In this document: positions 10,813 to 56,920 of the stretch, piece by piece | Position numbering within the stretch: the stretch's first letter is position 1 | How the letters are laid out: each line of letters opens with the position of its first letter | Assembly: GCA_018175075.1 (NCBI GenBank) | Contig: GCA_018175075.1_4100.2 | Reading direction: 5' to 3' (one strand) | Source: a phage | Length of the DNA: 64,000 nt | Made by a program: the position numbers and the translations under genes | The notes under the pieces: model-generated | The model's database searches: none | The model's input: the letters and a program-made list of their open reading frames with translations, nothing else | Told to the model about the DNA's origin: nothing

Positions 10813-11127
10813 ATGAATAAAGAACTTGTATTTGAGAGGATCGAAAAGTTAAAGTACATTGAAAAGGAACTAATAGAATCTGTCGAATCAATGGTCGAAG
10901 ATTACGTTTTCGATTTTAAGAAAACATTGATTGGATGTAAAGTTAAATGCTGGGATCATACAATCAGAGAATGGTTCAGTACTATAATTCTTGATGTTAA
11001 AGTATCGCGTACTGCTATTGGTAATTTAGTAAATGGTGAATGCTTTGTATACACTGAATACAATAACGGAACAAGAAACCTTTCAAGAGGATGGCACAAA
11101 CTCGAAGATGTAGAATTCATTGAGTAA
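10813..11127 (+). CDS. small paralog-family protein (dispersed member)
   Basis: TLIGCKVKCW motif. Confidence 0.45.
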   Translation: MNKELVFERIEKLKYIEKELIESVESMVEDYVFDFKKTLIGCKVKCWDHTIREWFSTIILDVKVSRTAIGNLVNGECFVYTEYNNGTRNLSRGWHKLEDVEFIE

Positions 11128-11139
11128 CAAGGAGTAATA

Positions 11140-12072
11140 ATGCCAACTATTACACTAACAGTTGGATTACCTGGGTGTGGTAAAACCACATGGGCAGTTC
11201 AAGAAATTAAAAATGCCAAATCCAAGACTATCAACATCAACCGTGATGATATTCGTGAATCTATGGCTGGGTCACATGATGCTTACAAATTCAACGATGC
11301 TAATGAGCAGTACGTAACTAATTTACAGTTCAGTGCAGCAAATTCAGCAGCAGAGAATGGTTGGAACATCATCATATCCGATACAAACCTTAAACAACAT
11401 TTCCGTAATCTCTGGAAAGTATGGGCTAAAGATAATGGTTATGATTACAAAGAAAAGAACTTCTATGATGATTTTGTACCTAATGAAGACCGTGGTGCAG
11501 ATGTTCATGAATTCTTTAAGATTAAAGAGTTCGTAAAACTTTGTAAGAAATATAACCTCCAGCGTGAGCGTTCAGTACAAGATGATATCATTGACACAAT
11601 GGCAGATACGTACTATTATAGTAAGGCATTACACATTGGTTACTATGGTAATTCACGCGAAGCTGCTATCATCGTTGATATCGATGGAACTCTTGCTCAT
11701 AAATGGGGTCGTAATCCTTACGATGAAAGTACTGTTCTTCAGGATACACCTGATGAAGAAGTTATTTTGTCTATTATCGCTGAAGCAGTTTTTCATAAAC
11801 GCAAGATTATCGTCATGAGTGGGCGTACTGAAGGGTGTCGTACTGACACCGAACAGTGGCTTAAGAATTGGGGTGTTCCTTACGATGCATTGTTTATGCG
11901 AGGCATCGATGATAAACGTCCTGATGATGTTGTTAAATTCGACCTGTACATGAAAAATGTGGTTAATCAATACGATGTTAAAAAGGTATATGATGACCGC
12001 GAAGCCGTGACGTTCATGTGGCGTAAGCTACTTGGTTTGAAGGTATTTCAAGTAGATTTTGGACGTTTTTGA
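11140..12072 (+). CDS. pseT: polynucleotide 5'-kinase / 3'-phosphatase
   Basis: P-loop GLPGCGKTT and overall resemblance to T4 Pnk (INRDD, VDIDGTLA phosphatase motif); RBS AAGGAG. Confidence 0.85.
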   Translation: MPTITLTVGLPGCGKTTWAVQEIKNAKSKTININRDDIRESMAGSHDAYKFNDANEQYVTNLQFSAANSAAENGWNIIISDTNLKQHFRNLWKVWAKDNGYDYKEKNFYDDFVPNEDRGADVHEFFKIKEFVKLCKKYNLQRERSVQDDIIDTMADTYYYSKALHIGYYGNSREAAIIVDIDGTLAHKWGRNPYDESTVLQDTPDEEVILSIIAEAVFHKRKIIVMSGRTEGCRTDTEQWLKNWGVPYDALFMRGIDDKRPDDVVKFDLYMKNVVNQYDVKKVYDDREAVTFMWRKLLGLKVFQVDFGRF

Positions 12073-53565: not shown

Positions 53566-53870
53566 AAAAATTATTAGTTCCAATGATTTCTTTTTTAATT
53601 ATAAGTGGGTGTGCCGAGCAAGTAAAACTACAATCCCCCGCACCAATTAAACAAGAAATTCTGTTAGAAAGATGTGATGATGATACACCTCTACCACAAA
53701 AAATTATGATTGACAAAAATGGTTTTAAAGGTTATGATGGTGCAGAAATTCTTAAAGTACTTACTCGTTGGGATGCAGTATACAATGAATGTGCTTTAAA
53801 ACATGACGCATTGATTAAAACTATTCGTGATTTACAAGGTAAAGATATTAAAATCAATATCAAGGAATAA
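53562..53870 (+). CDS. o-spanin-like lipoprotein
   Basis: Signal peptide with lipobox LIISGC; start overlaps upstream stop. Confidence 0.45.
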   Translation: MKKLLVPMISFLIISGCAEQVKLQSPAPIKQEILLERCDDDTPLPQKIMIDKNGFKGYDGAEILKVLTRWDAVYNECALKHDALIKTIRDLQGKDIKINIKE

Positions 53871-53871
53871 A

Positions 53872-54483
53872 ATGAACAAATATCATGTTTACTATACGAC
53901 AAAATTATCACTTCTTGAAGAATTAAATCAACGAAGTACTAAGATGAAACGCTACACTTTAAATGGTATTACTTTTCGATATTTCCCACAAAAAGTTCTT
54001 ACTTTTGTTAAGAATCCAAAATGCGTGGCATGTGGGATTGAAGCTACTGAAGTACGCATTGAACGTTCATTATGTTCTGATCCAGTATATGGTAAACCAC
54101 ATTTAAATGTATATGCTGTATGTGGTCTTTATGAAGTTTTAATGACAGTTGACCATAATCATCTGGCATCTAAGGGTGGACCTGATTTAGAGTCAAACTT
54201 TAATACTATGTGCTCCAGATGTAATCAACTACGTTCGAATAAAACTGAAACAGTTGATGAGTTTCTTGAAAAAGTTAAAGGTCGTAATCTTCTCCAAGAA
54301 CATATGAATAATTTCTTTAATGTACAAAAAAAGAAAAATAACATTGACAAGTCGAAACTACTAGAAGAACGTAGGTTACGTCAAGAATTATGGGAAACCG
54401 ATCATCTATGGCATGTTCGAGAGTTTGGTCGTCATATGAAAGCTTTGAAAAAAGAACAGAAGAAATTGAATAAACATGATTGA
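53872..54483 (+). CDS. HNH homing endonuclease
   Basis: TVDHNH...SKGGPD...N...CSRCNQLR HNH motif; RBS AAGGAA. Confidence 0.7.
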   Translation: MNKYHVYYTTKLSLLEELNQRSTKMKRYTLNGITFRYFPQKVLTFVKNPKCVACGIEATEVRIERSLCSDPVYGKPHLNVYAVCGLYEVLMTVDHNHLASKGGPDLESNFNTMCSRCNQLRSNKTETVDEFLEKVKGRNLLQEHMNNFFNVQKKKNNIDKSKLLEERRLRQELWETDHLWHVREFGRHMKALKKEQKKLNKHD

Positions 54484-54495
54484 TATGATATTATA

Positions 54496-54526
54496 AGGAC
54501 TTGAGTATTCAAGTCCTTTTTTTTGG
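54496..54526 (+). terminator. intrinsic terminator
   Basis: Hairpin GGACTTGA...TCAAGTCC plus eight T's. Confidence 0.7.
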
Positions 54527-54893: not shown

Positions 54894-55292
54894 ATGCTTA
54901 AAGAATTAGATTTTTCAAACTTAGAAATTATCAGTGCTGTAAAAAACATTTCCGATATGGGAGATGAGAAAGCAGTTCTTGTTACTATTACTTTTGTAAA
55001 AGAAAAAGATAGCTATAGCCATTTAACTGGTATTGAAGAACTAATTCATAAAACCAATCTTGAGAATGATGGTAAACTCATCAAGCTTCAGGCTTCATAT
55101 ACGCAAAAAACGTCAAATTTTATAGACCTAAATAATGTAGTCAAGGTGGTATACAATCATCCTGAACACACATATAGGAACACGACAAGAAATGAAAATG
55201 TTGCTAACGATTCGAATATTATCGAAGATGTTGAATTCATAAACACAATTTTTGATCGTTGTTCTAAGGATTTAAAAAAAGTATACATGTAA
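54894..55292 (+). CDS. hypothetical protein
   Basis: ORF. Confidence 0.5.
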   Translation: MLKELDFSNLEIISAVKNISDMGDEKAVLVTITFVKEKDSYSHLTGIEELIHKTNLENDGKLIKLQASYTQKTSNFIDLNNVVKVVYNHPEHTYRNTTRNENVANDSNIIEDVEFINTIFDRCSKDLKKVYM

Positions 55293-55293
55293 T

Positions 55294-55321
55294 GGGACAT
55301 TATATGTTCCAATGATATAAT
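55294..55321 (+). promoter_or_regulatory. sigma70-like early promoter (GGGACA -16- TGaTATAAT)
   Basis: GGGACA at 55294-55299; TGATATAAT at 55313-55321; shares ATGGGACATTAT with the promoter at 31464. Confidence 0.55.
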
Positions 55322-55327
55322 GTATAT

Positions 55328-55843
55328 AGAAAATGACAACGGACATTGAAAAATGGACACTGAGAACCTACTTCTCTTGAAAATGTAAAGGATAGATGAG
55401 CTTTACCGTTGTAGCGAACAGCAGAAGAAACCTGTTAGAGTACTGGCATTCAAACAAACACGATGTAAGACCACGAATCACGGCGACACGGCTGTATAAA
55501 GAACTCCGATAAGCATACAGAGAGTTCCTAGATAGATGTATAAGGTTCGCACCTTACCAGATTTGCTAAGGGAGTTTAAGGATAGCGGACGCAATTTTAC
55601 AAGAAAGTTGCGTCCAAAATTTGAGAACAGGTACTTACTTTGATCGAATAGAGTTAGTACTGAGTGCTGTTGATGAAAAGACCAGCGACCGTTGCATATG
55701 ACTGCGATAGAGAGAAACCGAGCAACCCGCTTTCGCTCTCTAAATTTTGGTACAAGAAAGATCCGTCCAAAATTTGAGAAATTCGCAATTCGATAATATC
55801 CGATGCCATCATCGTCAAGAGAGACTTAATTGTCTCTTTTTTA
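55328..55843 (+). ncRNA. candidate structured non-coding RNA (~515 nt, unknown class)
   Basis: Promoter-to-terminator interval with no ORF of 60 aa or more inside it; visibly more GC-rich than flanks; internal repeated hairpin modules; terminator at 55817-55843. Confidence 0.4.
55817..55843 (+). terminator. intrinsic terminator
   Basis: Hairpin AGAGAC-TTAATT-GTCTCT plus T-run. Confidence 0.6.
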
Positions 55844-55982
55844 TTACCTTCATTCCCCTGCGGGGGGATGTAATAGTCCTCAACAAATCCCGTCAAGTTT
55901 TTAAAGTACATTATCATTTTCAGAAGGAACTAGTTTACGAAGTAAACGCAGTGACTTCTTGAGTTACGAGAGAACGAAGTGA

Positions 55983-56411
55983 ATGAGTAACACAACGAAA
56001 ATATCCGATAAATCCGAATTAACACAAATGTTATTCAAAGAATATTTTGAGTTTCAGATAAAAGACGAACAACAATTACCACAGCAATATTTGAAAAGAA
56101 TTAAAGATCCGTCAGTAATTACTAAAGAAACTAATTTTTATAATAGTATTTTGGATTTCGTTAAATCAGTTCATACAACAAGACCTATTGTAGTTTTGTT
56201 TTTTGATAAATCTATTCCTTTAGTAGTTCCTGAAAATGTATTTTTTATTTCAGAAACTGATTTAAATAATCAAAGTACTGTAAGTAGATTAAGAAATTGC
56301 TTACTTGTAGTATGTGATTCTTCTTTGTATAATAACAGAATACTATGGGATAGAAGTAAACGCAATGCAGTTTCGGAAATGAATCCTGAAATTACCTTTA
56401 TTATTAACTAA
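55983..56411 (+). CDS. hypothetical protein
   Basis: ORF. Confidence 0.5.
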   Translation: MSNTTKISDKSELTQMLFKEYFEFQIKDEQQLPQQYLKRIKDPSVITKETNFYNSILDFVKSVHTTRPIVVLFFDKSIPLVVPENVFFISETDLNNQSTVSRLRNCLLVVCDSSLYNNRILWDRSKRNAVSEMNPEITFIIN

Positions 56412-56443: not shown

Positions 56444-56884
56444 ATGGAAGATATTAATGATTTACGACACGTAATGGACTTTATCGGAAGTACTGAAGAA
56501 GATAATTCATATGATGAAGTACTATTAACTTTTATTGAAAATAGTTTGTTTTTAAGTTCTGCTGCACATAACTGGCACTTACAATGTCATTTTTATACAA
56601 AGCATTTACAATTAGATGAACTATATAAAGAATTACCAGAATATGTAGACGCATTTGTTGAAGGTATCATGAATAATCGTGGTGCTTTGCAAGTTGGGAC
56701 TGGTAATAGTTATCGTTTTACACCAATTGAAGATTGTGTACCAATTCTTGAAGAATATGTTGAGCAATGCAGAGCAATTCATGATATGCTTGAAGAATCG
56801 GGTGATTACGGCAGTGTAAACACATTAGAAGATATTATGAGTTTTGTTGAAGGAACACTTTACAAACTTAAAGTTTTACAATAA
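56444..56884 (+). CDS. acidic hypothetical protein
   Basis: RBS AAGGAG. Confidence 0.5.
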   Translation: MEDINDLRHVMDFIGSTEEDNSYDEVLLTFIENSLFLSSAAHNWHLQCHFYTKHLQLDELYKELPEYVDAFVEGIMNNRGALQVGTGNSYRFTPIEDCVPILEEYVEQCRAIHDMLEESGDYGSVNTLEDIMSFVEGTLYKLKVLQ

Positions 56885-56889
56885 ACTAT

Positions 56890-56920
56890 ATGGAGAGTCG
56901 CTATGACTCTCCTTTTCTTT
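56890..56920 (+). terminator. intrinsic terminator
   Basis: Hairpin GGAGAGTC...GACTCTCC plus T-rich tail. Confidence 0.6.

Follow-up and report, generated by a model that had tools for sequence, protein, structure and literature searches.

The locus at 55294-55843 of the 64,000-nucleotide stretch of DNA analysed here (the window) very probably holds a genuine gene for a structured non-coding RNA of a new family, an assignment drawn from the comparison of related sequences. The family was previously uncatalogued and, apart from two copies in Escherichia coli islands, is confined to Rak2-like jumbo phages. The + strand of the locus can form at least 16 conserved helices, arranged in two domains and locked by three pseudoknot-type pairings. 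The coordinates of all features are collected in Table 1.

Table 1. Features of the RNA locus and of the conserved sequence that follows it, in window coordinates.
Feature	Position	Strand	Description
Promoter	55294..55321	+	GGGACA (55294-55299), 16-nt spacer, extended -10 TGATATAAT (55313-55321)
Predicted primary transcript	55328..55843	+	~515 nt, structured body and terminator
5' hairpin H1	55344..55355	+	CAUU-GAAA-AAUG with GNRA tetraloop, read from the sequence
5' domain	55368..55556	+	Covariation on alignment A1
Ha	55368-78/55388-95	+	Compensatory changes in 7/8 pairs
Hb	55400-02/55413-15	+	5' domain helix
Hc	55418-22/55491-95	+	Compensatory changes in 4/5 pairs
Invariant helix of 5' domain	55432-35/55480-83	+	
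Pseudoknot Hd	55486-88/55537-39	+	Crosses Hc; compensatory changes in 2/3 pairs
He	55501-06/55522-27	+	Compensatory changes in 6/6 pairs
Hf	55541-44/55553-56	+	5' domain helix
3' domain	55574..55794	+	Covariation on alignment A1; basis of covariance model R1
Hg	55574-77/55625-28	+	3' domain helix
Optional insertion module, copy 1	55587..55627	+	Hairpin GGACGCAA...TTGCGTCC, then CAAAATTTGAGAA; tip of Hg
Hh	55631-41/55650-60	+	3' domain helix
Pseudoknot Hi	Hh loop 55643-49 with 55788-94	+	99.4% paired
Hj	55665-68/55683-87	+	3' domain helix
Pseudoknot Hk	55691-95 with 55722-26	+	GUUGC/GCAAC; crosses Hl and Hn
Hl	55703-07/55783-87	+	3' domain helix
Hn	55710-14/55730-34	+	GAGAG with CTTTC
Hm	55737-40/55776-79	+	TCTC with GAGA
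Optional insertion module, copy 2	55745..55780	+	Tip of Hm
Site 1	55808..55819	+	ATCATCGTCAAG, with CGTCA(A)G at 55813-55819; ahead of the terminator
Intrinsic terminator	55820..55843	+	AGAGAC (55820-55825)-TTAATT-GTCTCT (55832-55837), then TTTTTTA
10-bp C/G hairpin	55849..55872	+	UUCAUUCCCC-UGCG-GGGGGAUGUA, 3' arm also written GGGGGAUGAA; nearly invariant in all copies
Conserved tract	55878..55897	+	CCTCAACAAATCCCGTCAAG = CCUCAACAAAUC(C/U)CGUCA(A)G; ends in site 2
Site 2	55891-55897	+	CGTCAAG, after the C/G hairpin
Downstream hairpins	55933..55980	+	GTTTAC-GAA-GTAAAC (55933-55947) and ACTTC...GAAGT (55954-55980)

Transcription signals and composition of the locus

By BLAST, the window belongs to an Asteriusvirus jumbo phage, with 99.7% identity to vB_Eco_slurp01 and 98% identity to 121Q. 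The GGGACA element begins 2 nt past the TAA stop (55290-55292) of the gene at 54894-55292. A promoter scan of the window returned 31 promoter-like sites against 26.7 expected, so that the locus promoter alone is not above chance. The sigma70-like promoter that an earlier note on this DNA had proposed directly after that gene is nevertheless found at an equal distance in the homologues, among the phage copies that were aligned from the promoter onwards, and it falls in a class, TG(G/A)(G/A)ACA-N15/16-TGnTATAAT, that recurs across the 121Q genome. This class matches a divergent RpoD-like promoter (-35 TGAAACG) that the genome papers of CBB and GAP32 tied to DNA-synthesis genes (PMC5259590). Transcription would be expected to start near 55328, about 7 nt after the -10 box.

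The intrinsic terminator, said in the same note to close the interval at 55843, is corroborated by compensatory changes in all five pairs of its stem across the homologues and by the conservation of its U-run. A simple terminator scan of the window did not pick up this hairpin, probably because the scan stretches the stem into the U-run. With the promoter scan at chance and the terminator scan missing its target, the case rests on comparative evidence. The terminator hairpin is missing in paralogues A and B of 121Q. Copies of the B/E type carry a hairpin with U7 directly after the start site, that is, before the body.

The description of the interval as almost free of open reading frames also held: the only frames of at least 60 aa inside it are the two mentioned before, 55654-55917 on the - strand and 55747-55962 on the + strand, which overlap each other and cross the terminator, and a third (55157-55360, - strand) clips its 5' edge. 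The higher GC content noticed by eye amounts to 38-43.5% inside the interval as compared to 26-32% in the flanks. The predicted 518-nt RNA folds with an energy z-score of -3.2, better than 100 of 100 shuffled controls, which was one of the checks that had been proposed.

Fold of the RNA body

An alignment of 23 diverse homologues (A1) was used to derive the secondary structure. RNAalifold predicted 84 pairs, 53 of them with compensatory changes. The curated structure combines these pairs with three crossing interactions that emerged from an unbiased scan for covarying stacks, giving 96 pairs in 18 helices. Across the alignment 95.7% of these positions are paired, as compared to 38-42% when the 3' partners are slid, and 69 of the 96 pairs change on both sides; none of 500 shuffles attained any of the observed measures. 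Together with the strong conservation and with the lack of a conserved protein at this place in related phages, these compensatory changes uphold the original proposal of a large structured non-coding RNA. In the body helices G·U pairs (128) far outnumber A·C combinations (20), which identifies the + strand as the folded one.

The hairpin that the first inspection had drawn between GAGAG and CTCTC is not the conserved one; in its place GAGAG pairs with CTTTC in Hn and TCTC with GAGA in Hm. Of the crossing interactions, Hi shows cognate pairs that differ from paralogue to paralogue: UCGAA/UUCGA in the window copy and UUGUA/UACAA, UCAUA/UAUGA or UUGCA/UGCAA in others. The helix junctions contain invariant A-rich stretches. 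The 5' hairpin H1 varies in length among the homologues, several of which also have GAAA loops. A module of 30-40 nt, first seen as a 30-nt direct repeat, is present or absent depending on the paralogue and occupies the tips of Hg and Hm. Its motif is essentially limited to the family loci, with a single isolated match to a short half-motif elsewhere in 121Q. RNAduplex found no consistent long-range pairing across the homologues that would close the 5' end onto the 3' end.

The covariance model R1, built on the 3' core, recognized exactly one copy in the window (55629-55819, 156.6 bits, E = 3.9e-29), this copy being a member of its seed. Four copies were detected in 121Q, and non-seed copies scored 116-160 bits. 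The window copy has the 3' core of the family, consisting of Hh, Hj, Hl, Hn and Hm together with the invariant segments GACCGT, GAAAC and ACCCGC.

Conserved sequence downstream of the terminator

The element had been described as bounded by promoter and terminator. Both signals are real, but the conserved element does not stop at 55843 and continues to around 55971. The C/G hairpin that follows the terminator occurs in 121Q at the family loci only. Sites 1 and 2, which lie on either side of terminator and C/G hairpin, vary in concert, with the same variant at both places in nearly all 23 sequences: CGTCAG in 13, CGTCAAG in 8 and CTTCAAG in RaK2. The exception is a pair of 121Q copies with CGTCAA, where the last base differs. 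The variant is not the same among the paralogues of one genome. The UCG(U)C portion of site 1 is also the 3' arm of a small local hairpin. A search for a common complementary partner of the CGTCA(A)G sites found none.

Further downstream, the hairpins at the end of the unit extend as far as the next gene, whose ATG is at 55983. At the equivalent place in other copies (A1 columns 815-838) six of nine pairs covary, the window copy being divergent here. In D-like copies, namely those of CBB and of two IMG/VR contigs, the unit extends for about 250 nt more and includes a T4-late-like TATAAAT, two covarying hairpins and a second, bidirectional terminator. The near-perfect conservation of about 130 nt past the terminator and the existence of two paralogues that have no terminator suggest that the mature RNA may be longer than the predicted transcript, or that part of the unit works as DNA.

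Distribution and position in phage genomes

The homologues occupy 254-293 places in 72 phage records, each of which is from a Rak2-like jumbo phage. The hosts of these phages belong to Escherichia, Salmonella, Klebsiella, Erwinia, Yersinia, Serratia, Cronobacter, Pectobacterium and Xanthomonas. BLAST located 4-5 places per genome and at most two in the RaK2 group, which corresponds to four paralogues per genome and five places in some genera. In the complete 121Q genome the family is represented by four paralogues, located near 90.3, 192.8, 247.4 and 326.7 kb. Each of them is on the + strand and falls into a gap of the annotation, and their identity to the window copy is 64-74%. In almost all complete copies an nhmmer profile aligned the entire unit of about 650 nt, which begins with the promoter and extends some 130 nt beyond the terminator; in the window it found a single copy at 55293-55971 (E = 6.5e-142).

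Copy D lies between the genes for endonuclease VII and a baseplate hub protein, both on the - strand, in 121Q, EJP2, Munch, Hallingskeid and BF, and copy B lies upstream of the same gene and a Dam methylase in both 121Q and RaK2. From these shared positions we conclude that the paralogues are ancient and that at least these two are fixed in place. The flanking sequence is different at every paralogue. A gene on the same strand directly follows the unit in three of the four 121Q copies and in the window copy, whereas D-type copies are followed by convergent genes in each of the five genera, with no gene on their own strand downstream. When the downstream genes of the paralogues were compared, no shared family was found; their proteins are unrelated and of unknown function. 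A common downstream gene family was therefore rejected as evidence for a riboswitch-like leader. HNH endonuclease genes are located near two of the copies.

In GenBank, dozens of records carry spurious 'hypothetical proteins' across the family loci, 121Q gp516 being one example. When JGI metagenome contigs and 100k GTDB species genomes were scanned for exact patterns, nothing but GC-rich chance matches came up, non-homologous as judged from the sequences themselves in the first case and by nhmmer and the covariance model in the second. A search of a plasmid collection gave no match to the family.

Copies and cassettes in bacterial islands

Two of 5,426 complete E. coli genomes contain one complete copy each. 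In this copy, 75.6% identical to the window and 80.6% identical to BF copy D, the body is intact (454 bits with nhmmer and 154 bits with the covariance model) and is accompanied by a promoter of the phage type, by the terminator and the C/G hairpin and by site 2. The integrative island around it is about 10.5 kb long, is situated between ffs and ybaA and encodes a tyrosine integrase split by an IS3 element, proteins of unknown function, a resolvase and a candidate defence system, PDC-M45 (DuOB, DUF488, mSLOG/DUF4326). Among the island proteins, DUF4326 alone has a homologue in 121Q.

Klebsiella, Raoultella, Yersinia and Cronobacter also have related islands; these contain SMODS, SIR2 or other conflict genes and have no RNA body. 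In those of Klebsiella and Raoultella, a cassette that lacks the body precedes protein-coding operons. It comprises, in this order, the same type of promoter, ATCTCGTCA, a terminator with U7, a degenerate C/G hairpin, CTCAACAAATCTCGTCAG and hairpins. Partial matches to the island cassette occur in 48 E. coli genomes and, among phages, in Rak2-like jumbo phages only. The promoter, site 1, terminator, hairpin and site 2 thus form a module common to Rak2-like phages and enterobacterial islands, which can function without the RNA, and by comparison of these sequences the structured body of about 480 nt is an addition seen in the phage copies. A link between the RNA and the island proteins p303 and p257 was considered and rejected, since homologues of both are present in other islands that have no RNA. 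The E. coli copy is therefore a rare acquisition, probably gained by recombination through the shared cassette.

Coding potential and known RNA classes

No conserved reading frame was found among the homologues, whose longest stop-free stretches lie on different strands, in different frames and at different places. Variable sites make up a similar fraction of each codon phase (0.66, 0.70 and 0.74), there is no 3-nt periodicity, and the indels are not multiples of three.

The first inspection had been unable to place the locus in any RNA class, and our searches agree. The 4227 covariance models of Rfam 15, which include GOLLD, ROOL, HEARO, OLE, raiA, RNase P, tmRNA and group I and II introns, gave no match in the whole window at the gathering threshold, and within a 1-kb region at E values up to 10 they gave just snoRNA and sRNA noise of 13-22 bits. 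The same scan of six other loci (three paralogues and three other homologues) returned nothing over the element. ARAGORN predicted no tRNA or tmRNA gene in the window, and a search of the published literature found no description of this RNA family.

The helices Hc, Hd and He of the 5' domain, which show covariation, may correspond in topology to the P3/P7 pseudoknot of group I introns with P8 between the 3' strands, but Hd is only 3 bp long. The candidate for the invariant, guanosine-binding G-C pair of P7 (A1 columns 209/260) is G-C in 15 and A-U in 7 sequences. We rejected a group I intron on account of this variable pair and of the missing match to the Rfam model at E values up to 10, and also because the element is intergenic, with its own promoter and no host gene or exons.

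Discussion

We favour the reading that the folded molecule acts as an RNA; its main rival is a role in cis, either in the control of read-through or in the priming of replication. The RNA would be transcribed by the host RNA polymerase in the middle, DNA-metabolism phase and may build up as a distinct molecule of about 515 nt, part of the transcription continuing into the conserved region of the C/G hairpin. Its action would depend on the three-dimensional fold, as a scaffold, as a protein-binding RNA or as a catalyst, and not on simple antisense pairing. Since the body always lies inside the cassette and the islands make use of this cassette, the action is probably tied to the RNA's own transcription unit. 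Action purely in trans is a possible but tentative reading, and action in cis is somewhat doubtful. The occurrence of copy D in five genera with no downstream gene and the unrelated downstream genes of the other copies speak for a stand-alone RNA, as do a size and complexity far above those of known leader devices. Dispersed copies at conserved positions are not obviously explained by an RNA that works in trans.

A leader device in cis would work as an attenuator close to the promoter, like lambda PR'-tR' or HK022 put. Transcripts would end at the terminator as long as no read-through is set off, and the body would act on its own polymerase or sense a signal and so control the downstream genes. 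We regard it with some doubt. It agrees with the constant position of the body within a cassette of promoter, terminator and hairpin, with the body-less cassettes ahead of island operons, with the same-strand genes that follow most 121Q copies and the window copy, hairpins reaching up to the start codon, with the dispersal of copies of which at least two types are syntenic, and with the terminator-like hairpin that B/E-type copies carry ahead of the body. The convergent genes at D-type copies, the second terminator at which the D-like copies examined (CBB and two UViGs) end and the unrelated families of the genes downstream of the paralogues argue against it, and so does the body itself: the known antitermination RNAs are small, about 70 nt for put and about 120 nt for EAR, and some 480 nt with three pseudoknots far exceeds any of them. 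The CUCAACAAAUC tract, moreover, bears only a loose resemblance to boxA. The unit may alternatively be an origin of replication with a structured primer RNA, by analogy with ColE1 RNA II and with oriF and oriG of T4, where an RNA transcribed from a middle-type promoter would form an R-loop or serve as a primer close to the G-rich hairpin and the identity of sites 1 and 2 would let the 3' region of the RNA anneal downstream. Such a function is consistent with the four to five copies scattered over a 350-kb genome whose replisome is of the T4 type, with the promoter class linked to DNA-synthesis genes, with the conserved C4/G6 hairpin and AT-rich tract after the RNA, with the direct repeats of sites 1 and 2 that vary in concert within each copy, and with a promoter-to-hairpin distance of about 520 nt, similar to that of RNA II; capture of the unit by an integrative island would moreover permit its amplification by an infecting phage. 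The GC skew, however, tracks gene orientation and is uninformative as a test for an origin, with no switch of the kind expected there at copy A, B or C. The unit is accompanied by neither an initiator gene nor iterons, and invariant junction nucleotides and pseudoknots go beyond the needs of a primer; T4 origins are not known to require RNA structure. The whole reading rests on analogy, and we consider an origin quite unlikely. A composite in which a cis-acting 'ribo-device', employed by the phages at four to five landmarks of the genome, drives terminator read-through or primes replication, the islands having copied the cassette, and in one case the entire RNA, to eavesdrop on infection or to be amplified by it, would be unlikely as well, though less so than an origin as such.

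The insertion of a group-I-like ribozyme, or of a self-propagating RNA or DNA module, into a leader cassette is very unlikely. The topology of the 5' domain would fit it if read as P3/P7, with a P8-like hairpin between the 3' strands and, ahead of a P4-like helix, an A-rich junction, and so would the position of the body relative to the terminator, which varies by copy type, its insertion-like absence from the island cassettes and the HNH endonuclease genes nearby. Against it stand the silent Rfam model, the variation of the P7-like pair and the location of the element outside any gene with a promoter of its own. The paralogues are about 70% identical, that is, as diverged as the genera are, and at least two types are syntenic, which indicates that there was no recent mobility and argues against a mobile module. 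Finally, the small hypothetical proteins annotated in several GenBank records could point to a degenerate or unconventional coding region, to which a purely DNA-level protein-binding element may be added. The differing strand, frame and position of the open stretches, the flat codon phases and the irregular indels contradict coding, and the compensatory changes with their excess of G·U pairs reveal a constraint at the level of RNA, leaving this explanation hardly credible.

Known classes of bacterial or phage non-coding RNA above 400 nt with a conserved tertiary-type architecture are very few, and those discovered to date, RNase P, group I and II introns, OLE, GOLLD and ROOL, each proved to be catalytic or structurally unprecedented. 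The present family comes with a curated alignment, three pseudoknots supported by covariation and a working covariance model, and about 290 natural copies are at hand for a deeper covariation analysis. Its host phages grow on E. coli K-12, which makes deletion, probing and cryo-EM feasible. The cassette is common to islands with candidate defence genes (PDC-M45, SMODS nucleotidyltransferase and SIR2), which makes it possible to test whether islands of bacteria place their genes under the transcription signals of one particular group of phages. If the composite cis-acting device were true, it would amount to a control or replication element of a new, RNA-based kind and would add a new path of crosstalk between phages and islands. 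In summary, the locus represents a new and well-defined family of large phage RNAs with pseudoknots, for which a link to defence islands of bacteria was unexpected.

Comparison with known systems

For the related jumbo phage PA5oct, four lncRNAs defined by RNA-seq were described in large ORF-free regions (PMC7318152). PA5oct ncRNA004 resembles the unit in that it lies between genes on opposite strands and ends in a C/G-rich hairpin after a small hairpin and a U-rich tract. With ncRNA001, ncRNA002 and ncRNA004, the best nhmmer E value was 0.085, for the terminal hairpin only, and model R1 detected no homology; on these two results the three lncRNAs were rejected as expressed homologues. Synteny with copy D was likewise rejected, since the neighbouring PA5oct proteins are unrelated.

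With the core of group I introns, the 5' domain may share a P3-like helix crossed by a P7-like one, a P8-like hairpin and an A-rich junction ahead of a P4-like helix, but the family has no flanking exons, no P6 and an unrelated 3' domain of 250 nt. The transcripts of ColE1 RNA II and of T4 oriF and oriG are comparable as structured RNAs of about 500 nt that end near a G/C-run; the promoters belong to the middle or replication class, and each genome has several loci that act in cis. Unlike ColE1 RNA II, the family has no evident antisense regulator and its structure is far more conserved.

Antitermination leaders include the '6S' RNA of lambda PR'-tR', HK022 put and the nut sites of lambda and rrn operons with their boxA and boxB. 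The order of promoter, transcribed region, intrinsic terminator and operon is the same in these leaders and in the family unit, which also has a hairpin and a conserved single-stranded tract nearby and several copies at the head of different operons. It differs from them by a pseudoknotted transcribed region of about 480 nt and by one copy type that heads no operon. The C/G hairpin and the CUCAACAAAUC tract, which in a nut or put site would precede the terminator, are found downstream of the adjacent one; the tract lacks the U-rich core of the boxA consensus, and no antiterminator protein was identified.

A further parallel is offered by GOLLD and ROOL, large 'ornate' RNAs often borne by phages or prophages and seen by cryo-EM (10.1101/2024.12.08.627333). 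Their covariance models do not match the present family. Like it, they are non-coding RNAs of 500-800 nt with many helices, pseudoknots and invariant junction nucleotides, and they are associated with phages and have their own transcription signals. In contrast to GOLLD and ROOL, the family described here belongs to jumbo phages that are lytic and infect enterobacteria. Each genome has 4-5 copies that have diverged from one another, at least two of them at fixed loci, and the leader cassette of the family is also used in bacterial islands.

Repeats, copy types and surroundings of the RNA

The two CGTCA(A)G direct repeats of the cassette carry a matching variant within nearly all of the 23 homologues. 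This concerted variation holds also for each of the paralogues within one genome and for the G-to-T change of RaK2, and the only exceptions to the identity of sites 1 and 2 are two 121Q copies with CGTCAA, in which the last base differs. A shared pairing partner for the repeats was sought and not found.

D-like copies, present in CBB and in IMG/VR contigs, continue for about 250 nt beyond the first terminator. A conserved ORF was not found in this extension, which may be a separate small RNA. In B/E-type copies (121Q copy B, L005:42771-42810; L042:6720-6770; L050) a terminator-like hairpin followed by U7 lies 5' of the body, immediately after the predicted start site, and these copies have no internal terminator. 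The promoter type TGGGACA/TGGAACA-N15/16-TGnTATAAT occurs many times across the 121Q genome; the + strand of the window has 15 TGnTATAAT sites, and its - strand 2.

Many GenBank phage records annotate small 'hypothetical protein' ORFs over the RNA, up to four per locus; these lack conservation and, most likely, are spurious. A weak match of R1, the covariance model built on the 3' domain, at window 11096-11241 (14.9 bits, E = 1.4) was regarded as noise.

In the window, the RNA is preceded at a distance of about 800 nt by a free-standing HNH endonuclease gene; in 121Q, paralogue A is followed at about 650 nt by another HNH gene, gp170. A terminator-like hairpin at window 56892-56912, GGAGAGTC...GACTCTCC, is a perfect palindrome; it was scored on both strands and overlaps the start of an ORF at 56903.

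Features of the RNA unit, its copies and its surroundings
Feature	Location	Description
CGTCA(A)G direct repeats	window 55813-55819 and 55891-55897	on either side of terminator and C/G hairpin
D-like extension	L041:6700-6900; L044; L048	T4-late-like TATAAAT, two covarying hairpins, conserved ATGGCAAATC, second bidirectional terminator
gp516	121Q 247799-247954	small 'hypothetical protein' annotated over RNA
Recurrent promoter type, example sites	121Q 5208, 10459, 101459, 258205, 321919	
Body-less cassette, in order	L062:3300-3600	phage-type promoter, ATCTCGTCA, terminator, degenerate C/G hairpin, CTCAACAAATCTCGTCAG
HNH endonuclease gene	window 53827-54483	Pfam HNH, E = 1.3e-5
Strong terminator	window 54495-54518	after HNH gene
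DUF7325 protein gene	window 54894-55292	flanking; annotated structural in 121Q
Gene immediately downstream of RNA unit	window 55983-56411	sole match a PHROG of unknown function
DUF5856/ferritin-like protein gene	window 56444-56884	flanking; annotated Dps-like

Occurrence in bacterial islands

In E. coli LR-29-1 (NZ_AP027515.1; L056:10900-21500), the phage RNA unit occurs once, complete, within an integrative island that spans about 10.5 kb and has ffs and ybaA on either side; the same island with the unit was found in strain EEC_W5 (L057). The copy adjoins PDC-M45, a candidate defence system (DuOB, DUF488 and mSLOG/DUF4326), and the integrase of the island is interrupted by IS3. Only two complete E. 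coli genomes out of 5,426 carry the island with the RNA unit.

Klebsiella/Raoultella islands (L062, L063, L064) hold the cassette without the RNA body, and the island genes downstream of it include a SMODS nucleotidyltransferase. Partial matches were present in 48 E. coli genomes. Since this body-less cassette precedes island genes and its phage matches are confined to Rak2-like jumbo phages, the data suggest that islands borrow transcription signals from this group of phages.

Comparison with PA5oct ncRNA004

The 3' end of ncRNA004 of PA5oct (L039:2654-2735), an lncRNA defined by RNA-seq, carries three elements ordered as in the window cassette: first a small hairpin, then a U-rich tract, and last a hairpin rich in C/G, UUCCUUCCC-AAAC-GGGGAGGAA. 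The similarity to the cassette is not significant (E = 0.085), and the body of ncRNA004 is not homologous to that of the window RNA.
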